54,201 bases of DNA from a virus, in IMG/VR virus record IMGVR_UViG_3300049442_000069; one strand, written 5' to 3'. Shown here piece by piece: positions 4,201 through 35,274 of this stretch. Each line of letters begins with the position of its first letter. Position 1 is the stretch's first letter. The notes below the pieces were generated by a model, which saw nothing but the letters and a program-made list of their open reading frames with translations, was not told the origin of the DNA and searched no databases. The position numbers were made by a program, and so were the translations under genes.

Positions 4201-5181
4201 TTACGGTGGGACAAATTGTGTTCCCGTCCAGCGCAGATCACCCTGGTCCGTTTGATAAACCACACCGGCCTGCATCTGCTGCTTCGTCGTTGGCAGCGGT
4301 TGCGTTTGGTAGGTTCCCTTATCCACCGATGGCAGGGACGATACTCTGTCCTGGATTTGCTGGTATCTCCTGGCCTGATCGGTCAGCCATTGCGAGGAAA
4401 TTATTCGCGGCTTCCCAACGGGCTTGCCGTTCACATACTGCTGGATTTGCTTCATCCCCGTGGATGGTGCTTCCGGCTTGGGGTAACCAGGCACTCCCAG
4501 TCTCTGTTGCCAGGTCAGACCTGCCTTCTGCTCGTCTGTCAGTTCCCCGGGAACATCCGGGTATAATTCCGGATGCAGCACAGGGTTGGTGTCAGTGTTC
4601 TGAATGTTGCCCCAAAGCTGGCTGCTAACACCATGCTGCCAGGCCTTGGTGTCGGACTCGATTCCTCTCCTGGCATTGATAACAGCGTTCTGTTGCAGCC
4701 GCGCCTTGTTATTCCTGGCCTGAGTGTAGAACGAAGGCGGAGCATACTGGTAATCAGGGTTTCCGAGGATGTTGTCGATCTTCGACATGTAATCAGGGTC
4801 GAGTGGATTCGCGTCGAGGCTGGCGAAGTCCCTGGAAATTCCAGAAACGCTGTCCTGCATCTTTTTTCTGTCACCCACTTTTTCATCGAAGATGTCCTGC
4901 TTTAACTGGAGCGCACCTTCCCTCAAGCCCACGCCTTGCTGCATCCCATAAAGCTTCATCTCGTTCAGCTTGTCCTTCATCGCGCTGTCTGCTTCGATCT
5001 GGGCGTTCTTCTGCTGCAACGCCTGCATTTTGCCTTCAAACTCCTGCTGCTTCAGCTTGAGTCCGGTGGACAAAGCCCATGCATTAAGGAACGTCTCCGC
5101 CGGATTCCCGAGGGCGATGTTCTTGTAGGGGATCTGATTGGCGTCAGCCTGTGCTGCTGTTAGTCCTGATGCGTCTGCCAT
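4201..5181 (-). CDS. Hypothetical virion protein (candidate internal/ejection protein), cysteine-free, Q-rich
   Basis: Track ORF of 326 aa. It is tightly packed between minus-strand structural genes and is followed 2 nt later by the giant ORF start. No recognisable motif. Confidence 0.7.
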   Translation of the reverse strand: MADASGLTAAQADANQIPYKNIALGNPAETFLNAWALSTGLKLKQQEFEGKMQALQQKNAQIEADSAMKDKLNEMKLYGMQQGVGLREGALQLKQDIFDEKVGDRKKMQDSVSGISRDFASLDANPLDPDYMSKIDNILGNPDYQYAPPSFYTQARNNKARLQQNAVINARRGIESDTKAWQHGVSSQLWGNIQNTDTNPVLHPELYPDVPGELTDEQKAGLTWQQRLGVPGYPKPEAPSTGMKQIQQYVNGKPVGKPRIISSQWLTDQARRYQQIQDRVSSLPSVDKGTYQTQPLPTTKQQMQAGVVYQTDQGDLRWTGTQFVPP

Positions 5182-17368: not shown

Positions 17369-17600
17369 TTCTCTCTTTAACAACTTCCCAGGTTCGGAGG
17401 CCAGACAATCCGAACACCAGCACGGCCAGGGCACGTTGAAATTCGTAGAGGTATTTGAACTCGTTCTGCGGCAGGGCTTCTTTCAGCCAGCCCGGATAAG
17501 CCAAAGCAAAAAGCTGAATCACCATGATGAGAATTGGCATGAACAGGAACATCAGCACCGCTCCCCAGTTGAGAAAATGTTTCCATGGTTCTTCCTTCAT
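17319..17600 (-). CDS. Two-TM membrane protein (holin-like), 93 aa
   Basis: In-frame ATG at 17600 within track ORF 17319..17738 ([35 protein letters not shown]...[12 protein letters not shown]). It forms an ATGA overlap with the stop of the collagen-like gene. Confidence 0.55.
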
Positions 17601-19060
17601 GGTATTTCCGCAGCGCACATGGCGACGGAACTCAGCTTCCCTATTCCGCTTCCACCAGCATTGCCGTATCCCGCGCTGAACCAGTAACGAGTTCCGACCA
17701 CTAATCCGGTGACGATGGCAACCAGTCCTATCGGGCAAGGCAAATTAGCGATGGCAGAACCCGACAAAGCAAGTCCACCCGCAACGGTTCCGGCGACCGA
17801 CGATCCCGGATTAGGTTTACTTCCTGTTCCCCACCGGAGCTGCGCTGATGCGCCCTGGTTCACCGAGTTGTTACTCATGTAACCAGACAAGCTGAACATG
17901 ACCTTTCCACTGAAACTCGGAGTGAGGTAGTCGCCCAATCCGGTCATTACTTCGCCCTGGGTTGTTCCGGCCAGTGTTGACTGTGCGGTCTGGAAAAAAG
18001 CGAATGTTCCAGTCGGTCCTACTTCGCCCTGAATTCCCTGCGCTCCCTGAAGTCCCTGCGGCCCCGCTGGGCCTGCTGGTCCCTGGATTCCCTGTGCGCC
18101 GGTTGCTCCGGTCGCTCCAGTGTTTCCTTTTGCTCCGGTCGCTCCTGCTGGTCCGGTTGGTCCTGTCGGGCCAGTTGGCCCGGGGATGCCCTGAATTCCC
18201 TGAGATCCTGCTGTTCCCTGGTCTCCTTTTGCTCCTTGGGGACCAGTCAGTCCCGTGGCTCCGGTTTGTCCTACTAAACCGGGATCTCCCTTCACGCCCT
18301 GTGGACCTGTGGCTCCAGCCGGGCCTTGTGCGCCTGTCGCGCCGGGAGTGCCGGGTGCGCCTGCCGGTCCCTGGATCGGGCCAACATCACTCCATTGCCC
18401 GGGCAAACCCCAAACCCAGCCGTGGCTCGTATCCAGAGTGATCCACAAATCTCCCGGAGTTGCCGAGGCCGGGAGGCTGGCGTGCGTTGCAACCGATCCC
18501 TTGATGACGACACTCGTTCCGTCAGCTCCCTTCGGACCTGTCGGGCCTGCCGCGCCTTGAATTCCCTGTGGACCTGGTGCGCCCTGTGCGCCCTGGGTTC
18601 CAGTTGCTCCTGTTGCCCCGGGGTTACCTTGTGGCCCCTGAGATCCGACATCTCCTTTGTTTCCTTGCGGCCCCTGCGCTCCGGTTGCTCCCGGCGCACC
18701 GGCAGCTCCTGTTGCGCCAGTTGCTCCAGTGGCTCCAGGAGGACCAGTTGGGCCGGGGATAGTTGAATCTGCTCCGGCGGCTCCCGGCGGCCCTTGTGGT
18801 CCCGTGGCTCCGGGAACACCCTGCGGTCCCTGCGCTCCAGTCGCTCCCTGCGGCCCGGTTCCTGGCGGTCCTTGTGGACCCGTTGGGCCAGTTGGACCTG
18901 CTGGACCTTCCGGTCCTACAGCGGCTGGAATCTGAATCTGGACAGGCGAACCATCGCCAGCGTCGAATACCTGAACACCACCGAATGGTGGTGTCAGCGG
19001 CTCAATCACCTCGACCTGAAGGAGAGATGGAGCTGTTTGTAAATCGTCCAGTGTAGTCAC
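17597..19060 (-). CDS. Collagen-like (G-X-Y repeat) tail fibre with the shared C-terminal module (C1q/BclA-like architecture)
   Basis: Track ORF of 487 aa. Two long G-X-Y blocks ([19 protein letters not shown]... and [19 protein letters not shown]...) are separated by a non-collagen insert ([21 protein letters not shown]). The C-terminal ~120 aa are homologous to the other two fibre C-termini. Confidence 0.85.
18020..18919 (-). repeat. Nucleotide-level triplet-periodic repeats encoding the two G-X-Y blocks
   Basis: Runs of GGN-CCN/ACN/GCN codons. They generate many spurious overlapping ORFs on both strands in the track (17962..18935). Confidence 0.8.
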
Positions 19061-27776: not shown

Positions 27777-27977
27777 TTAGTCCTTGAAATTCTCGATGCG
27801 TTCTCCCAGGACCATTGAGTATTGCACCATAATTTTTTGCTGCCTGCTCATGCGCTCCCATTCGTCGGGAGGAACTATCTGCACGGAGTTGTCATCATCG
27901 AGAAAGGCGGATAGCGCGGCGGTCTTCCTGTCGAGTTCCTTCTTCTCATCGACCACGCGCTGCTGGTAATCTTTCAT
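27777..27977 (-). CDS. Hypothetical small helical protein
   Basis: Track ORF of 66 aa (MKDYQQRVVDEKKELDRKTAALSAFL...). Confidence 0.55.
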   Translation of the reverse strand: MKDYQQRVVDEKKELDRKTAALSAFLDDDNSVQIVPPDEWERMSRQQKIMVQYSMVLGERIENFKD

Positions 27978-28246
27978 AGTTTCAGGTTGTCAGCGGTTGG
28001 TTCAACAACAGGAGAGGAAGGATCGTAGCTGTGAGGATAGGGATTAGGGGTTCCCAGTCGCTTCAAATCCATGCCCATCCACATGATTGCCTCCTGCACC
28101 TTTGTTATGGCCAGTGCGCGTTCGCGGCTGCCGGGAAGCCGCTTCATTCCCTGAAGAATGCTGTCCAGTCCGTGCCGGACAATTTTATCCTCCTTGATTT
28201 CATCGAAGGGCATGTCGGTGTCCGGGTGTGTTGCTTCGTCGCTCAT
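27974..28246 (-). CDS. Hypothetical small helical protein
   Basis: Track ORF of 90 aa with an ATGA overlap. Motif GSRERALAITKVQEAIMWMG. Confidence 0.55.
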   Translation of the reverse strand: MSDEATHPDTDMPFDEIKEDKIVRHGLDSILQGMKRLPGSRERALAITKVQEAIMWMGMDLKRLGTPNPYPHSYDPSSPVVEPTADNLKL

Positions 28247-28503: not shown

Positions 28504-29160
28504 TCAGGCTTTTTCCTCCTTTACCCCGGGCTTGTCAAGAGGAAGAAAATTCTCTCCGTCTTTTTTGAGCCAGCAAAAGTCGGGATACATATCTTGATGA
28601 GCGTCGGAATCGCTGCTAAGAGTTGCCATCGGAAAATGAACCTTCGCCTTGAGGAAACACTTGCAGACAGCGCAGGAACGGAGGGCAAAGTCGTAGCGAG
28701 ACTTCTTATCCCCGATCACTTCCTTAACAGCCTGGGCGCAGCCAGCGCACCCCTGAACGTCAACATTCAGATAACACTTTGCACAGATGCTGGCCCTCCT
28801 GTCAGCCTCGGCCTGCGTCACATATTTCATCCCGGAAGCTATCCAGCGAGCGAACGTCTTGAGTCCGGCGGTGACGTCGCTGAAGTAAACGATCGGTGAT
28901 GGACGCCTCCGGTTTGGATCGTCGTAAAGGCACCAGCCCGGAGGAAGCGTTTTGCAGATCTGTTCCTGCATGTCAGCTTCAAGCGTGGCAGGAATTTCTC
29001 GATTATTTGCGTAAAGGTGACGTCTCTCAACGTCTAGCCAGTCGGTGTAAGTCCAGGCGTGAGCTACAAAGCCGGATACGGGATCGACATAGCGGTAGCC
29101 CTCGGGAGGGCAGTCGCCCATCGTGTTAATAAGGCACAGACGAGTATTCGGGGCTGACAT
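28504..29160 (-). CDS. Cys-rich (zinc-ribbon-like) protein
   Basis: Track ORF of 218 aa. Cysteine clusters ICAKCYLNVDVQGCAGC and SCAVCKCFLKAK. Overlaps the terL 3' end by 35 nt. An alternative ATG is at 29121. Confidence 0.55.
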   Translation of the reverse strand: MSAPNTRLCLINTMGDCPPEGYRYVDPVSGFVAHAWTYTDWLDVERRHLYANNREIPATLEADMQEQICKTLPPGWCLYDDPNRRRPSPIVYFSDVTAGLKTFARWIASGMKYVTQAEADRRASICAKCYLNVDVQGCAGCAQAVKEVIGDKKSRYDFALRSCAVCKCFLKAKVHFPMATLSSDSDAHQDMYPDFCWLKKDGENFLPLDKPGVKEEKA

Positions 29161-30793
29161 TGCGTTTTTTGAGGAAGCGTTTCCATGGGGAATCGGGCCG
29201 ATCCTCGCTGGTGGAAATATCGTTGGGTGAAAGATGGCACCGCGCGGCTGCCACCTGCGCCGTCACCACATCGGCATCGGCCAGGTCCGGGGAATGGCGT
29301 GTCCGGTCTTTCATCTTGGCCTTGGTCTCCAGGGAAATGTAATTGCCGCGCATGGTCCACCAGCGGCGGCAGAACTCCATGGCACTTTCAGGATCGAGAC
29401 CCCGGATTTGCTCGTTGAGGAGGATCAGCCGGAAGAAGAACCACAGCTCGGTGACTCGGCGGTCATATTCTTCATCCGCTCTTTTAGGGTTCGTGTTAGA
29501 GACAGGATTGCGGGATGGTCTGCCGCCAAATTCAACGCATAAAATTTCTCGACTCCATTCTCGTTGAAAGATACTAGCAAGTCCACCTCCTTCCCCGGTT
29601 GAATCAAGACCGAAATAGTAAGGTGTAACTCCTTCATTCTTGCATGCCTCCTTTACCTGCCGCACAATCTGGTAATGCGCTGGATCGTCAGGTTTGACCT
29701 TGGTCTTGACGAATACCTTGCGTTCAAGCCGGAGCGTCATCTTGCCCGATACCTTGCCGCATTTCCCAAAGCGAAGGACGCACCGGTCATCTCCTTCAAA
29801 GGCCGGGTCAAGACCCGCGACGGGGATTACCTCCTGGTCGAAGGAACAGTCCGAAAAGGCGTCGGAACGAACGATCATGGGCATGGTTAGGACAGTCTTA
29901 ACAACGCCTTCCGGTGCCCAGTAACCGCGCCTCATCTGCCAGAATTGCGGCGAATCGACGCCATAAACAGCCGCAGTGGTGTCAATGTCGGCCTGAGTCA
30001 GCAATCCCGGGTAATTTGCCGCCTTATTGGTGATATTCGGGCTTTTCAGGCCGTCCAGGTGGATGCAGACGCCTCTTTTGGTCTTCCAGGAGCTGGATTC
30101 GACATCCACGCTGTCCCAGCCGTTAATTGGCTCCGACATGCGCCCGTGCGGGTCAAGCATGTCGTCTGCGTTGCCTAATCCGATGAACTGGAAGGATTTT
30201 GCTCCTGTTTCAAGGTTGACGCAGGCTTCCACGATGGCTTCAGGCGTGTAAGGCATTTCATCAACGATGACCACCATGTTTGGAGCGTGGAACCCGATGA
30301 TTTTCCCGATTGCCTTGTCAATTTCACCTTTATCGGTGGCAAGTCCGAAGATTCCCGCATCATCGTGGCCTTTGCGGTATTGAATGCAGTTTCTAGACTG
30401 GACCATGTGACCAAATAAGGGTCGAAGTCGATGGAAATGACTGATCTCCTTCCAGACTCGTCGGCGGAGACCGTCCAGCGTGGTGGAGGTGACGATGACA
30501 ACGGTGTCCTTGGGCGAGGAATAGAATCTAGCCAGTCCAAAAAGGCCTGCGGAAGTCGTTTTCCAGGAGGCAGCGGGACCAGTGACGGTTGACCAGGGAT
30601 TTTCGGCAAAGGTTCGCTGCATCCAGTCCGACCAGTCGTTCCAGATGTAGGTGTTGGGGTGGTATTTGTTCCAGGTGAGATCAATGGCGTTCTTAAAATG
30701 CTGATATTTGCCCAGCCCAAGCGGAGGATCGTTGTGGAAACACCACAGCTCAATCGCCGCCTGGTCTTGAGTCGGAAAGTTCAGGCCATACAT
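29126..30793 (-). CDS. terL: Terminase large subunit
   Basis: Track ORF of 555 aa. P-loop-like TGPAASWKTTS, Walker-B-like MVVIVDEMPY, an acidic C-terminal nuclease-like half, and position next to the terS candidate. Confidence 0.7.
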   Translation of the reverse strand: MYGLNFPTQDQAAIELWCFHNDPPLGLGKYQHFKNAIDLTWNKYHPNTYIWNDWSDWMQRTFAENPWSTVTGPAASWKTTSAGLFGLARFYSSPKDTVVIVTSTTLDGLRRRVWKEISHFHRLRPLFGHMVQSRNCIQYRKGHDDAGIFGLATDKGEIDKAIGKIIGFHAPNMVVIVDEMPYTPEAIVEACVNLETGAKSFQFIGLGNADDMLDPHGRMSEPINGWDSVDVESSSWKTKRGVCIHLDGLKSPNITNKAANYPGLLTQADIDTTAAVYGVDSPQFWQMRRGYWAPEGVVKTVLTMPMIVRSDAFSDCSFDQEVIPVAGLDPAFEGDDRCVLRFGKCGKVSGKMTLRLERKVFVKTKVKPDDPAHYQIVRQVKEACKNEGVTPYYFGLDSTGEGGGLASIFQREWSREILCVEFGGRPSRNPVSNTNPKRADEEYDRRVTELWFFFRLILLNEQIRGLDPESAMEFCRRWWTMRGNYISLETKAKMKDRTRHSPDLADADVVTAQVAAARCHLSPNDISTSEDRPDSPWKRFLKKRNVSPEYSSVPY

Positions 30794-31259: not shown

Positions 31260-31386
31260 TTCCCCGGTGTTGTAACGCGCGGGGATCTTAAATGCAAATA
31301 AGAATCCCTTCGGGTTTTTATCATATTGAGAATTTCTTACAGGTAACCGGGCTTTTGCACCTATGCATTTCTGTCTGGGTAACTAG

Positions 31387-31404
31387 CCCCCCCCTACCCC
31401 CCCC
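31387..31404. repeat. Twin homopolymer tracts C8-TA-C8 (G8-TA-G8 on the transcribed strand)
   Basis: Read directly (agCCCCCCCCTACCCCCCCCgg). Lies ~130-145 nt upstream of the terS start. Confidence 0.9.
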
Positions 31405-31600: not shown

Positions 31601-31634
31601 TACTCCGGGGTAATGCATTACTGTGATGCATTCC

Positions 31635-31777
31635 GGCCTCTGTCCCCGGTGATACATTCACGCAATGAATGCGCGTTGAATGCTCGGCCTTGCAATCCTG
31701 GCCTCTGATGCCAAGCAAAAAGCCGGGATGATTAGTCCCGGCCTCTGCTCTCCTGTTAATGTTTCGGCTCGGCCTCT
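31635..31777 (+). repeat. Four dispersed GGCCTCT repeats among short ATGCAT/GAATGC palindromes
   Basis: GGCCTCT at 31635, 31700, 31740 and 31771. Neighbouring palindromic ATGCAT/GCATGC and CATTCA/TGAATG pairs lie in 31460-31680. Confidence 0.75.
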
Positions 31778-31796
31778 CGACCTACACCGGATTATG

Positions 31797-32027
31797 TCAT
31801 TGTTTCACGCATGATTGCCAAGCTCCCTCTTTGGTGTGCGTGTGAATATACCACTGCTCCACTCCACATTTGCAGGTGTGCGCGGGTTTGTCGTTCACGC
31901 ATGAATCCTCATGGCTCCAGACATTGCCGCAAGCTGTGCATTTGTGCGAGTGTTCCCCGGTTCCGTCCATCTCGCGCAACAGTGCCACCAATGCCGCGAG
32001 CGGGTTTTGTTCTTTGGTCGTTCTCAA
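31797..32027 (-). CDS. Small zinc-ribbon-like protein
   Basis: Track ORF of 76 aa. Motifs HKCTACG and HTCKCG. ATGA-type overlap with the vWA gene. Confidence 0.55.
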   Translation of the reverse strand: MRTTKEQNPLAALVALLREMDGTGEHSHKCTACGNVWSHEDSCVNDKPAHTCKCGVEQWYIHTHTKEGAWQSCVKQ

Positions 32028-33544
32028 TTCTTCAACGGGCCTTTCCCCCCGAATGCTTCGTATGCTTCATCTAACGAGCGATAGACTTTCAAGTTTCCGT
32101 TGCGTGTCTCGCGTTCAACGATCGCCTTCGCCACATCTTCCGAACCCAAGACGCCACCGCAGAATTTCAAGTCGGAGACCAGAACCCACGGTTTCGGGAA
32201 ACGCATCATCCAACGAATGGCGGGTAAATCTACGGCGTTTCCACCGTGCAACGTCCCCTCCGGCAGTTCGTCGGCAAAGCGCATTCCCTTATTGGCGTAA
32301 ACGCAAAGTTCCCCTTTGCCGTATCCACTCCCGGAGTAGTAGGCAACGACAGCTTGCGGAACAAGCTTGCAAAGCGCAGACAAGTTCTCCCGGCTTGCGC
32401 CCATGCTCCCGGATGCGTCAATGAGAACGCAACCCCCCGGCTTTTGTCTGACTCGTTTGCTAAACAGTCCGTTTGCATCGCCTGACACAATCGCGGCGAC
32501 GTAGCGCGACGGGTTTATGATTACACCGTTGGGCGTCTTTCGCATGCTGATTGACTTTTCCTTGGCGCAATAAACGCTTTTCGGTTTCAAGTCGGTAATC
32601 TGCATGTGTCCATCAAGTGCGTCTCCGTCCTGCTCCGGCAACAGAATATCTCCGTCACCCTTCGGGCCTTCTTCGCCTTCTTCGATTTCCGGGTTGGGTT
32701 CCGATTCCATTAACGCCAGCAACATCGAAATTGCCTTTGCCCGTTTGCGGCGGCTGATTGCCATTGTCGCAATTCTGGAAACAGCATTTAGCATCCTGTG
32801 TCCGATTGCGTCCCGGATCTTTTTTAGTCCCCGGTCTTTAACGTGCATTCCGGCATAGTCCCCGTTGTTGAAGTCCGGTTGTCCGTAGTGCTTCAACATG
32901 GCAATCGTTCTGACTGAATGGATTAACTGTCCGTTGCGAAGCGGCACGGCGTCCGGGATGATTCCGGCCTTAACTTTTCGGGCCGTGTTCTTAATGACGC
33001 GAACCCCTTTCATTGCCGTTGTTAGGTGCGCTCGCTTGTAAGGTTTGAGCAGTCCCGGCGATACTTGCGGAAGGTCGGTTGATTCAATGTTTACATCATC
33101 AACGACTTGGCCAATTAAGGCCTCCAATTCCGAAACGGGTTTTTTCCGTGTCGGAGTGTGCCGTGTTGCGTGTCGGGTTTCGTGTCCCCGGATTGTGATT
33201 CCTTCGGCTGAATCGTCCAAAGGTGCGCCAAGCTTTACAACGTCCCGGCGGTTTTTCTGATCGTATTCGGTGAAGCCACCAATCGGAGAACCCGCAAGCT
33301 GTGCGCGTTCCGCCAAGATGATTTTGGCCTTCCTTAGCTTGCCACCGGGAACACTGCCCCGGATTGCAGCGCGAACCGTTTTACGGCTCGGCTTTGCTCG
33401 CTTCGGCAGCATCGCCCCGACAGCTTTGGCGATTTGCTCAACCCCGGCCTTGCCCGGAGCGATTGGTATCGCCCCGGCAATTTCGGCGGCGGTTAAACCC
33501 GCGCCCGTTCCTATTCGTGGGATTCCTCCCGGCCCAATTACCAT
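32024..33544 (-). CDS. vWA-domain protein with an N-terminal HExxH motif (metallopeptidase-like + vWA, MoxR partner type)
   Basis: Track ORF of 506 aa. GHETRHATRH (HExxH at aa 121-125) and the MIDAS-type CVLIDASGSMG (DxSxS at aa 376-380). Confidence 0.65.
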   Translation of the reverse strand: MVIGPGGIPRIGTGAGLTAAEIAGAIPIAPGKAGVEQIAKAVGAMLPKRAKPSRKTVRAAIRGSVPGGKLRKAKIILAERAQLAGSPIGGFTEYDQKNRRDVVKLGAPLDDSAEGITIRGHETRHATRHTPTRKKPVSELEALIGQVVDDVNIESTDLPQVSPGLLKPYKRAHLTTAMKGVRVIKNTARKVKAGIIPDAVPLRNGQLIHSVRTIAMLKHYGQPDFNNGDYAGMHVKDRGLKKIRDAIGHRMLNAVSRIATMAISRRKRAKAISMLLALMESEPNPEIEEGEEGPKGDGDILLPEQDGDALDGHMQITDLKPKSVYCAKEKSISMRKTPNGVIINPSRYVAAIVSGDANGLFSKRVRQKPGGCVLIDASGSMGASRENLSALCKLVPQAVVAYYSGSGYGKGELCVYANKGMRFADELPEGTLHGGNAVDLPAIRWMMRFPKPWVLVSDLKFCGGVLGSEDVAKAIVERETRNGNLKVYRSLDEAYEAFGGKGPLKN

Positions 33545-33545
33545 A

Positions 33546-34292
33546 TTATTTGCTCCTTATGTTGTTTCTCGCAGCGTCCACCAAAGCCATGAGAATTGTT
33601 TTTCCTTGCGCCTCACCGAACACAATGTCGGCGGCTAATTCATCCGAGACGCCTTGCGCCCGGAAATTTTCCCACGCGAGAAACTTTCGCGGCGACGGTG
33701 TTGGAACCCATTCGTCATGGTCTGGCGCATTCGCCATTTGATTAACGATGAATGCCGCAGCCTCCGGCGACAGTCGGCGCAATAGGCCTTCGTGCGGTGT
33801 GTTGCATTTAATGATGCAATCAAAACGGTCTTGCCATGTGTCCGGCAACTGATCGGGTGAACCGTTCATTGTGGCAATTACTCTGTAACCGTCTTTTGGA
33901 ACGATCACTTCGCCATTGTCCAGACTGAAACGGGCAACGGTTGAATCGTCCAGAACGCTATTCATTGCAGAATCTAATTCTGAAGATGCTTTGTGGATTT
34001 CGTTCACGATCAACGGGCAGCCTTTGAGAGCGGCCCTAGATGCCGTGCCGTGCGCCCAATGTGTCGAACCGTCTTTGAGTAGAAACTTACCAAACAGAAC
34101 ATCGGGAAACTGTCCCGGCGTAAGGGTAATGTCCTCAAATTCGGCAACGAGTGATTGCGCGTATGTTGTTTTCCCGGTTCCCGGAGGCCCATAGTAAAGT
34201 TGGCGTCTCGGCGGGTTGGGTAGTGAGTTAATCAAAGCGGCGACTTTCGGCCAATCTTTGATTGCGATTCCTTCTTTGTTACTTGTTGACAT
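33546..34292 (-). CDS. MoxR/AAA_5-like AAA+ ATPase
   Basis: Track ORF of 248 aa. Walker A YYGPPGTGKTT. Walker-B region PLIVNEIHKA, with Asn where Asp is usual. Then SAMNSVLDD...FSLDNGEVIVPKDGYRVIATMNG, the pattern of MoxR/CobS-type ATPases. Confidence 0.7.
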   Translation of the reverse strand: MSTSNKEGIAIKDWPKVAALINSLPNPPRRQLYYGPPGTGKTTYAQSLVAEFEDITLTPGQFPDVLFGKFLLKDGSTHWAHGTASRAALKGCPLIVNEIHKASSELDSAMNSVLDDSTVARFSLDNGEVIVPKDGYRVIATMNGSPDQLPDTWQDRFDCIIKCNTPHEGLLRRLSPEAAAFIVNQMANAPDHDEWVPTPSPRKFLAWENFRAQGVSDELAADIVFGEAQGKTILMALVDAARNNIRSK

Positions 34293-34449
34293 ATATCGGT
34301 GTTACTTCTTTGCTGCTTTCTGACAGCTTGTTGGTTATGATTGTTATTGCCGATTGCGTGAACTCGCAGAGCATGATTTTTAGATCAGTTTCGCTTGTTC
34401 CTTTGTAGCCTTCGGCGGCTTCGTCTATTAACTGGCTGAGTGTTTGCAT
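34279..34449 (-). CDS. Hypothetical small protein (56 aa)
   Basis: Track ORF 34279..34491. The ATG at 34449 (MQTLSQLIDEAAEGYK) starts 2 nt after the stop of the upstream ORF and avoids a 40-nt overlap. Confidence 0.45.
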   Translation of the reverse strand: MQTLSQLIDEAAEGYKGTSETDLKIMLCEFTQSAITIITNKLSESSKEVTPIYVNK

Positions 34450-34451
34450 TG

Positions 34452-34640
34452 TTATATTTTGCCTCCGTCGCAGATGAAACAAGGTTGGCATCCGGTCTCG
34501 CTACGACCAGTCCCCCCGCATTCCACGCAGAACCCGCCAAGATTCGTCCACCTGTCCGGCAGACTGACTCTCGGCAATGGCGACTTGCCCAAGTTGGGCA
34601 ATTCTTCGACTTCGGTTTCGTTCATCTTTTCTGTTATCAT
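34452..34640 (-). CDS. DnaJ-type zinc-finger miniprotein (two CxxCxGxG-like repeats)
   Basis: Track ORF of 62 aa. Motifs CVECGGTG and CFICDGGK. It is the first gene of the leftward operon. Confidence 0.55.
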   Translation of the reverse strand: MITEKMNETEVEELPNLGKSPLPRVSLPDRWTNLGGFCVECGGTGRSETGCQPCFICDGGKI

Positions 34641-34722
34641 TTGTTACTGATTTAGACAGCATCCCAACCCGTTCGTTCAATCTATGGCAATCTTTTTTTC
34701 GGCTCGGCATCTATTCAAGGTT

Positions 34723-34740
34723 CCCCCCTATAGTCCCCCC
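34723..34740. repeat. Twin homopolymer tracts C6-TATAGT-C6 (G6-ACTATA-G6 on the transcribed strand)
   Basis: Read directly. Lies ~85-100 nt upstream of the 34640 start. Same architecture as 31387-31404. Confidence 0.9.
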
Positions 34741-34799
34741 GTTGCCAAGCTTTTCGGAAACTTTTCCCCGGTTTGCGAGCGGGTTGGTATGCTTCCTGC

Positions 34800-35030
34800 T
34801 CCATAAGACAGTATGACACGACAGAGACACGACGCAGCGCGACAGATCGCCGCGCATTTCGCGGCACTGGGCCGCGCCTCCGGGCAGCGTCGCCGGGAGA
34901 TCGCCGCCGCGCGACGCCGTGCCGGTGCGCCCCCACCCGGCCCGACCGCGACGCGGCCTAGCACAACTCAACCTTTGCCAACCCCGGACAAGGACACCCC
35001 GGACTTGTCGCGGCGTGGCACAACTTGACC
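34800..35030. other. Visibly G+C-rich island in the divergent control region. Contains a doubtful ORF (34813..35028, plus strand).
   Basis: Runs of GCGC/CCGC. The track shows six mutually overlapping ORFs on both strands, which is typical of high-GC non-coding or foreign DNA. The plus-strand ORF reads ...HFAALGRASGQRRREIAAARRRAG... Confidence 0.5.
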
Positions 35031-35046
35031 TTTGGCCGAACCAGGG
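34961..35046 (+). repeat. Direct repeat GCACAACT(C/T)(A/G)ACCTTTG(G)CC(A/G)AACC, two copies ~57 bp apart
   Basis: GCACAACTCAACCTTTGCCAACCCCGG at 34961 and GCACAACTTGACCTTTGGCCGAACCAGGG at 35018. Confidence 0.75.
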
Positions 35047-35085
35047 ATTGCATATTTTTACAACCCGATTGCAAATTTTCACAAT
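35046..35085 (+). promoter_or_regulatory. Tandem operator-like sites GATTGC-N9-CAAY (two copies, 21-bp spacing)
   Basis: GATTGCATATTTTTACAAC at 35046 and GATTGCAAATTTTCACAAT at 35067. Same motif as 43348-43386. A partial inverted copy (TGGCAATC) is at 34685-34692. Confidence 0.55.
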
Positions 35086-35106
35086 CATGCGAAGTTACTT
35101 GGTATT

Positions 35107-35274
35107 ATGACAACAGCAGCATCAGCAACAGCAGTCAAAGACTATTTACGGAAGATCGGCTCCAAAGGCGGAAAGAAAAGCGCACAGCATCCTGACCGCC
35201 CCCGGCTAAATCGAGAGGCAGCAATAGCCCGTTGGAGAGGCCACATGCCCAAACCAAAAGAAATTCCAAAATAA
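35107..35274 (+). CDS. Small basic protein with a GSKGGKK motif (55 aa)
   Basis: In-frame ATG within track ORF 35032..35274, whose listed start is TTG. Sequence: MTTAASATAVKDYLRKIGSKGGKKSAQHPDRPRLNREAAIARWRG... Confidence 0.5.
   Translation: MTTAASATAVKDYLRKIGSKGGKKSAQHPDRPRLNREAAIARWRGHMPKPKEIPK

Follow-up and report, generated by a model that had tools for sequence, protein, structure and literature searches.

We analyzed a group of five genes on a 54,201-nt stretch of viral DNA (IMG/VR record IMGVR_UViG_3300049442_000069), the whole of which we refer to as the window. At positions 31797 to 34640, a sequence-only reading of this DNA had described a five-gene leftward operon, and all five minus-strand open reading frames (ORFs) are indeed present where it put them, abutting or overlapping (gaps of 2 nt and 1 nt, the latter between the ATPase and adaptor genes, and overlaps of 14 nt and 4 nt). 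Two of the genes form the core: a 248-aa ATPase of the AAA_5/MoxR class and a 506-aa protein, hereafter the adaptor, which has an HExxH motif in its N-terminal part and a von Willebrand factor A (vWA) domain at its C terminus. This pair is a divergent, compact member of a phage module consisting of a MoxR ATPase and a metallopeptidase-vWA protein that was described in 2021 (PMC7824862), so that the architecture is not new. We favor, with moderate confidence, the reading that the two proteins form the core of an ATP-driven remodeling machine of the MoxR/vWA type, with the same build as CobS/CobT and NorQ/NorD. The window is in essence the same as IMG/VR contig UViG_3300046461_000068 (54.5 kb). 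It comes from a phage, with terminase-like, tail-fiber, and structural genes further left of the module, and the locus extends the module into a very large viral family outside Pfam coverage, in small phages of 35 to 55 kb. The motifs on which the sequence-only reading had based its functional calls (CxxCxGxG, GPPGTGKT, LIVNE, GHETRH, DxSxS, and the cysteines of a zinc ribbon) are all present; their positions are given in Table 1.

TABLE 1 Features of the module and of its flanks, in window coordinates
Feature	Coordinates	Strand	Basis or remark
DnaJ-type miniprotein, 62 aa	34452..34640	-	ORF; CVECGGTG and CFICDGGK; judged accessory
56-aa ORF, orphan	34279..34449	-	ATG at 34449; mechanical ORF reaches 34491 (70 aa)
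AAA_5/MoxR-class ATPase (motor), 248 aa	33546..34292	-	Pfam AAA_5, PHROG, family profile
Walker A GPPGTGKT, ATPase residues 35-42	34167..34190	-	Sequence motif, family alignment
Walker B LIVNE, Asn97-Glu98 of ATPase	33999..34004	-	Sequence motif, 154 family members
CobT-like adaptor, 506 aa	32024..33544	-	AlphaFold model, Foldseek, motifs
HExxH (H121 E122 T R H125) of adaptor	33170..33184	-	Alignment and model; within GHETRH, residues 120-125
Acidic disordered linker, adaptor residues 286-309	32618..32689	-	pLDDT <50; Glu/Asp-rich, length variable in alignment
MIDAS DxSGS (D376 A S378 G S380) of adaptor	32405..32419	-	Motif DASGS, residues 376-380; N436 and D458 complete the site
Zn-ribbon-like miniprotein, 76 aa	31797..32027	-	HKCxxC...HTCxC; TTG start overlaps adaptor stop; judged accessory
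Terminator-like hairpin and U-run (core stem 31721-31743)	31713..31750	-	RNA fold; probable end of transcription unit
Divergent intergenic region	34641..35031	.	Repeats, AT-skew switch; presumed control region

The ATPase and the adaptor

The assignment of the 248-aa protein to the AAA_5/MoxR type is borne out by Pfam, whose AAA_5 model it matches well above the cutoff (E 8.4e-13; 48.9 bits, cutoff 22). Within PHROG it matches phrog_16448 (ATPase; 1.7e-20) and phrog_249 ("porphyrin biosynthesis"; 1.9e-17), the family in which annotation places phage cobS genes. [quoted passage not shown] Across the family, the Walker A lysine is found in 146 of 154 members and the Walker B glutamate in 152 of 152, with the sensor-1 asparagine in 153 and the arginine finger in 152 of the 154. 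The first position of Walker B, which is Asn97 in the window protein, is aspartate in 89 of these members, asparagine in 59, and glutamate in 4; Asn97 is therefore a common family variant and no sign of a defect or of decay, and we rejected the idea that it makes the ATPase inactive. Judged by its sequence, the 248-aa protein carries every catalytic residue of an AAA_5 ATPase, and the Asn form may hydrolyze ATP.

The adaptor was recognized by its motifs and its predicted fold. No Pfam, NCBIfam, or PADLOC family model matched it or its homologs, with Pfam VWA_2 appearing weakly (E 0.14) in just 2 of 35 homologs; among the profile families that the sequence-only reading had named, AAA_5 was found for the ATPase, and the VWA and CobS/CobT models were left unmatched by the adaptor. 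PHROG gave a single match, phrog_33218 (unknown function; 4e-10), over the C terminus, and the adaptor family profiles found nothing meaningful among PDB sequences, only low-complexity matches. The AlphaFold model of the full-length protein has a predicted local distance difference test (pLDDT) score of 82.6, and that of the N-terminal domain alone (residues 48 to 200) reaches 89. The modeled chain begins with a helix, a three-stranded sheet, the HExxH helix, the helix that carries D150 and E154, and additional helices; after the acidic disorder of residues 286 to 309 come a small beta-rich segment and an alpha/beta domain that starts from the DxSGS strand and alternates strands and helices at a pLDDT of ∼85 to 92. 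A Foldseek search of the BFVD viral models returned VWFA and CobT-like phage proteins at 1e-10 to 4e-7, with the C-terminal domain matching at 2.7e-7 to 4.5e-7. The DxSGSM motif is invariant in 35 adaptor sequences down to 26% identity, and D376, S378, S380, M381, N436, D439, and D458 are invariant in a set of 36 very divergent adaptors. Motif and fold matches thus back the earlier vWA call, and the model and alignment together support a C-terminal vWA domain with an intact D-S-S-N-D MIDAS.

The family to which the adaptor belongs is large and essentially viral. Its 87 close relatives are all metagenomic, many of them on contigs of 50 to 56 kb, and an exhaustive search (E <0.001) gathered ∼1331 clusters at 50% identity; a third large protein search with a broadened alignment returned the same family only, without links to Pfam. 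The viral character follows from a scan of 185,579 species genomes, which gave only 10 distant matches, all of them in metagenome-assembled genomes (MAGs). A tblastn search of 50,697 phage records with the adaptor and a marine relative gave no match. The ATPase, the adaptor, and both zinc-finger proteins have homologs in which their motifs are conserved beyond chance, and in each of the 73 IMG/VR-derived loci where both core genes were detected, the adaptor gene has the ATPase gene directly upstream; the remaining loci break off within ∼150 nt of where the adaptor starts or, in the case of L078, within the adaptor gene itself.

Relation to known phage and cellular systems

Two published readings of such phage pairs disagree. 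In jumbo phages of group 2.2, Iyer et al. 2021 (PMC7824862) described a MoxR ATPase adjoining a vWA protein with an N-terminal metallopeptidase, and proposed that the pair acts in the assembly of virions, with processing by proteolysis. Liu et al. 2021 (PMC8651126), on the other hand, took the viral pair for cobST, stated that cyanophage cobT had been misannotated as a peptidase, and proposed that viral cobST hijacks host CobN. The choice is thus between an assembly chaperone with a peptidase and a B12 chelatase using host CobN. Phage cobS has been listed as a core "metabolic" gene of cyanophages since the mid-2000s, and the core cyanophage pair of "peptidase" and cobS corresponds to T4-GC146 and T4-GC150.

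The window pair can be connected to these systems through the Ralstonia jumbo phage RsoM2USA, which the window ATPase matches (RsoM2USA_445/446 pair). There, the gene that follows an AAA_5 gene encodes a protein of 635 aa in which HEVGHA...IVEDGYIE is accompanied by an acidic linker, DWSGSM, and TDGG. Homologs of this adaptor are the "peptidase" proteins of T4-like cyanophages, by the hundreds, and that of Pelagibacter phage Mosig. In five of five kyanovirus records, cobS (an AAA-family gene in Mosig) is found at a distance of one gene or one small ORF from the "peptidase," and in three of the five the pair stands between gp46/47 and gp45. The window adaptor has in common with the proteins of RsoM2USA and the five kyanoviruses an HExxHA motif, hh(E/D)(D/E)xxIE ∼25 residues further on, an acidic linker, DxSGSM, and (S/T)D(G/L), and in all of them an AAA_5 gene adjoins the adaptor gene. 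Using hhalign, the window family (alignment A3) gave a tentative match to the RsoM2USA/kyanovirus adaptors (A5), with a probability of 60.6% and an E value of 8.3e-5 over 69 N-terminal columns, that is, in the HExxH domain; alignment A1 matched A5 more weakly (E 0.019). The window family is nevertheless more compact, with an ATPase of 248 aa against 351 to 411 aa and an adaptor of ∼450 to 500 aa against 635 to 770 aa, and it places the ATPase gene first, whereas the adaptor gene comes first in the kyanoviruses. The clade of the window further differs from RsoM2USA and the kyanoviruses in that its pair stands before terS and is accompanied by zinc-finger miniproteins; the adaptor family has no tblastn link to a cultured phage.

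Among cellular systems, a matching layout is seen in CobT, for which a recent preprint reports crystal and cryo-electron microscopy structures of CobSTN (bioRxiv 10.64898/2026.07.21.739949; structures 9UKA-9UKL). Its M48C-peptidase-like N-terminal domain combines a helix and a three-stranded sheet with eight helices. Next come a ∼90-residue linker, a shaft reaching into the CobS ring, and the vWA domain, and the MIDAS is formed by D422, S424, S426, N518, and D546 (D-S-S-N-D). Compared with this published description, the window adaptor has the same domain order and the same five MIDAS residue types. The sequence-only reading had suspected a CobS/CobT-like pair, and in this sense it was right: the adaptor has the CobT layout and belongs with the phage pairs of cobS and "peptidase." The condition "CobT type without a conserved HExxH," which that reading had held against its own proposal, applies in its first half only, the protein being of CobT type with the HExxH motif conserved. 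The motif is kept in phage adaptors; PDB alignments consulted for the motif in cellular CobT gave low-complexity matches only. CobS and the window ATPase are both AAA_5 motors, of 328 aa and 248 aa, respectively. Neither core protein matched the curated CobS/CobT models (NCBIfam CobS/CobT; Pfam CobT and CobT_C), and the window holds no ORF of CobN size (the largest has 888 aa), so that a genuine CobS/CobT identity was rejected. A plasmid search for cellular CobT returned one VWA protein, unrelated. This VWA domain-containing protein, from the 349-kb plasmid NZ_CP091425.1 of Methylobacter sp. YRD-M1 (326783-327094), can be aligned with the cyanophage "peptidase" in its HExxH region (E 5e-4), which indicates that cellular HExxH-vWA relatives exist.

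Three other MoxR-vWA systems bear comparison. Besides midasin, the best solved sequence relatives of the window ATPase are NorQ and CbbQ, and NorD, the partner of NorQ, resembles the window adaptor in having an N-terminal domain, a long linker, and a C-terminal vWA domain. NorD differs from the window adaptor in its MIDAS, a canonical DxSxS-T-D, and in a finger that is set into its vWA domain; neither NorD nor CbbO has been reported to carry HExxH, and both have as clients respiratory or carbon-fixing enzymes whose genes are their neighbors. The Acidianus two-tailed virus encodes, like the window, a MoxR-vWA pair (p618 and p892), to which a chaperone role is ascribed; by its description, this pair has no peptidase-like domain and serves an archaeal virus in extracellular tail development. 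Lastly, the vWA-MoxR ternary conflict systems (VMAP, iSTAND, FtsH, and beta-propeller types) have the same core, and their vWA component rarely carries a metallopeptidase effector (Kaur et al. 2020, PMC7159879). These systems are cellular and are characterized by a conserved third component as well as by arrays of C-terminal effectors, and the window has nothing of the kind; the other three genes of the unit encode proteins of 56 to 76 aa without such domains, and we rejected a VMAP-type reading.

The HExxH site

The HExxH motif noted by the sequence-only reading is strongly conserved in the adaptor: it is invariant in 35 of 35 close homologs, where R119, H121, E122, H125, A126, and D150 do not vary, and it occurs upstream of the MIDAS in 171 of 185 full-length family members (92%). 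In the model, it lies on helix 113-128, and D150 (invariant) and E154 (conserved in at least 90%) lie on the next helix, 139-154. This order of a backing helix, a three-stranded sheet, an active-site helix, and a next helix fits a zincin topology, and two of the top three PDB matches of the N-terminal domain are nonsignificant matches to the HExxH protease SPRTN (6mdw and 6mdx; E 0.44-0.47). In several marine subfamilies, however, the motif has decayed to KQIAH, HQLGR, LQLGH, or LIAYVD with the rest of the protein kept, so that catalysis is not essential to the family as a whole. Going by the alignments, the site is under strong selection in most lineages, including that of the window, and the family can do without it. 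In the clade of the window, the site probably binds a metal, and it may cleave a client or the adaptor itself.

These data bear on the possibility that the HExxH domain serves for docking only, as in cellular CobT, with the motif kept as a structural metal site or a relic and without any cleavage. We regard this as a tentative alternative of rather low probability. The M48C-peptidase-like domain of CobT binds the small subdomain of CobS as well as CobN, and zinc or HExxH is unmentioned in the preprint (bioRxiv 10.64898/2026.07.21.739949); the loss of the motif in otherwise intact marine proteins and the failure of the N-terminal domain to match any active zincin significantly would suit such a role. 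Yet H121, E122, H125, and D150 are invariant down to 26% identity, and the catalytic glutamate, present in all but 14 of the 185 full-length members, would be superfluous in a purely structural site. The HExxH...EDxxIE signature also recurs in the cyanophage and RsoM2USA proteins, and the strong conservation of the motif argues against the "peptidase" label being a simple annotation error.

A putative ATP-driven remodeling machine

How a pair of this kind might work can be drawn from NorQD, in which the finger sits in the pore, the N-terminal domain rests on the small subdomain of the ATPase, the linker is stretched, and the client is held between this N-terminal domain and the MIDAS; CobST works likewise, with its shaft in place of the finger. 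By analogy, the window ATPase would form a hexamer, and the conserved segment in front of the vWA domain (residues ∼313 to 371, including GLFxRRxRxKPGG) would engage the pore and face of the ring together with the conserved C-terminal tail of the adaptor. The adaptor's N-terminal domain would dock on the small helical subdomain (lid) of one ATPase subunit, and the MIDAS metal would bind an acidic residue of a client protein. ATP-driven rotation could then twist the adaptor, stretch its linker, and remodel the client held between the two adaptor domains, with the two zinc-finger miniproteins possibly acting together as optional client-binding or co-chaperone accessories.

With regard to where and when this happens, the gene neighborhoods are informative. 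In the clade of the window, the leftward arm opens with the pair, and terS and terL come next, after an intergenic region. Elsewhere in the family, the module usually travels with replication and accessory genes: in L059, from a marine subfamily, it lies among ParB-like, exonuclease, and single-strand-annealing protein (SSAP) genes; in L024, it lies between a primase-helicase gene and terL; and in the cyanophages, it lies among the DNA-metabolism genes gp46/47 and gp45. This recurrent company favors an early or middle role inside the cell over virion assembly. In the window itself, the unit stands beside the divergent control region, and both a terminator-like hairpin and a conserved G-rich element lie between it and terS, which suggests that the pair and the late genes belong to different units. 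Taken together, the data suggest, with moderate confidence, that the module works inside the infected cell in the early or middle phase and is probably neither a virion component nor a cobalamin enzyme.

Several points weigh against a remodeling machine that works in this way: (i) no Pfam family reaches even an E value of 0.1 for the 506-aa protein, so that the vWA call is one of motif and fold; (ii) the best PDB fold match of the adaptor, to the vWA domain of NorD, is weak (E 0.05); (iii) the model of the N-terminal domain has no significant match in the PDB that would establish a zincin fold; (iv) the HExxH motif has decayed in the marine subfamilies mentioned above; (v) the pore-inserting segment and the docking surfaces are proposed by analogy alone; (vi) the timing of expression is inferred from position only; and (vii) the location of the pair immediately before terS and terL in the clade of the window fits morphogenesis too.

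The last of these points leads to a chaperone and protease for virion assembly, in which the pair would remodel or trim a structural protein during head or tail morphogenesis. Being the first leftward unit, directly in front of the terminase and structural genes, would fit such a function; the proposal has been made for jumbo phages (Iyer et al. 2021, PMC7824862), an assembly role has been shown for the vWA/MoxR pair of the Acidianus two-tailed virus, and no prohead protease was recognized among the structural genes scanned. The last observation, however, means little where most structural genes have no match at all. The hairpin and the conserved element set the pair apart from terS, the rest of the family keeps the pair among replication and recombination genes instead of structural ones, and some subfamilies have lost HExxH. 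We therefore consider assembly unlikely, if worth keeping in mind.

Of about the same standing is a protease for host takeover or counterdefense, as which the sequence-only reading had put the module forward: the MIDAS would capture a host protein, the motor would unfold it, and HExxH would cut it. A unit beside a divergent control region and insulated from the late genes, the conservation of HExxH, D150, and E154 in the clade, and the essentially viral distribution of the family (no more than the 10 distant MAG matches) would all agree with it. None of this points directly to counterdefense, however. PADLOC returned only P-loop noise for the ATPase and no similarity of the module to known defense or antidefense families, the recognizable antidefense genes of the phage sit elsewhere (27777-28246), and HExxH is lost in some lineages; the counterdefense proposal has thus found no backing, and we think a takeover protease improbable. 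Its more elaborate form, a split AAA+ protease in which the zinc fingers would aid recruitment and the motor would unfold or twist what the MIDAS has captured before HExxH cuts it, seems to us less probable again. If it were true, the core "cobS" of marine phages would be part of a host-takeover or counterdefense protease and not a vitamin B12 gene.

The least likely reading, and one that we give very little weight, is that of an auxiliary metabolic CobS/CobT that takes over host CobN and raises cobalamin synthesis (Liu et al. 2021, PMC8651126): although the CobT-like layout and MIDAS residue types and the match to phrog_249 speak for it, the curated CobS/CobT models remain unmatched, the ATPase profile is far closer to NorQ/CbbQ than to CobS (4e-21 versus 2e-8, with 248 aa versus 328 aa), there is no CobN-sized ORF in the window, and a chelatase adaptor gives no reason for an HExxH with its catalytic glutamate in 92% of members. 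Returning to the remodeling machine as our preferred reading, we note that the phage is uncultivated, so that the locus adds breadth and constraints to the question and no test system.

The small proteins of the unit

The sequence-only reading had called the zinc-finger miniproteins dedicated partners of the pair, which goes too far: homologs are found in about half of the close relatives and are absent from all distant subfamilies. The 62-aa protein has paired CxxCxG(x)G motifs that are kept in its homologs. As it has no match in Pfam, PHROG, or NCBIfam, its likeness to DnaJ is one of motif only; Pfam, NCBIfam, and PADLOC likewise gave no match to any of the three small proteins. Homologs of this DnaJ-type finger with conserved cysteines occur in L001, L005, L006, L015, and L019, and L001, L006, L010-L012, L020, and L021 have homologs of the zinc ribbon, located either between the core genes or upstream or downstream of them. 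Their placement varies: both zinc-finger genes are upstream of the ATPase gene in L001, there is one on each side in L006, as in the window, and in L010-L012 the position is between the core genes. In L015 and L019, the DnaJ-type finger and the zinc ribbon are fused into one ORF of ∼110 to 120 aa, which suggests that the two zinc-finger proteins work together and belong to the module. From this pattern of sequences, we regard the miniproteins as real but accessory.

The 56-aa ORF has a GGAGG 12 nt upstream of its ATG and runs 14 nt into the start of the ATPase gene; its sole homolog is in the near-identical contig L005. In the distant relative L003, a 191-aa cysteine-rich ORF (4357-4932; 15 Cys, four CxxC) stands upstream of the ATPase gene and replaces the small zinc fingers.

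Boundaries of the unit and its surroundings

The unit is bracketed by two repeat-rich gaps and diverges from a rightward arm, much as the sequence-only reading had it. The AT skew changes sign at ∼35 kb, in the same place as the switch in ORF orientation. The hairpin listed in Table 1, directly 3' of the last gene, has a folding free energy (dG) of -23 kcal/mol and a z score of -4.2, and 0 of 200 shuffled sequences fold equally well. A scan for consensus promoters and terminators found sites no more often than expected by chance and missed this hairpin; its weak sigma-70-like matches, on both strands near 35057-35113, are likewise no more than chance.

The downstream gap, between the module and terS, measures 537 bp. 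It contains three exact minus-strand copies of CAGAGGCCRG (31633-31642, 31698-31707, and 31738-31747), one of which overlaps the hairpin, together with degenerate copies; there is no exact copy elsewhere in the window. The upstream gap of 391 bp has a 37-nt direct repeat (34941-34977 and 34998-35034; 76% identity, 57-nt spacing) and an 18-nt inverted repeat (34658-34675 and 34776-34793), which may be operator or origin-like elements.

A second feature of the downstream gap is the G-rich element G7-8 TA G7-8 CTAGTTACC at 31375-31404 on the minus strand, a noncoding element conserved in the clade ∼100 to 150 bp upstream of terS. It recurs in L001 (7906), L006 (8215), L008 (7618), L009 (8738), L011 (2667), L014 (8809), L015 (4902), L016 (8819), L018 (7673), and L020 (1427), and it is kept in nearly all phages of the clade though their proteins are only 50 to 65% identical. 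The element might serve as a promoter of late genes, as a packaging site, or as a signal that forms a G-quadruplex.

Beyond the gap, the terminase-like gene (29126-30793, minus strand) and nearly all large structural genes, which fill most of 4200-29000, have no match in Pfam or PHROG, and the terminase-like gene has three weak tblastn matches among the 50,697 phage records; by these comparisons, the clade is far from any cultured phage. Between the terminase and an 888-aa portal-sized gene, there are two small minus-strand genes (27974-28246 and 27777-27977), one of which matches the Pfam Acb2/Tad1 hairpin domain (E 1.5e-6; 28.7 bits, cutoff 27) and the other PF21825, which is crAss001_48 related and named Sequestin in newer Pfam (E 2e-18). 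Homologs of both hold the same position in L001, and the two likely encode antidefense proteins, for instance, sponges for signaling nucleotides. Further left, a minus-strand gene at 17597-19060 encodes a 487-aa collagen-like tail-fiber protein and is locally GC rich (0.65 compared to ∼0.55).

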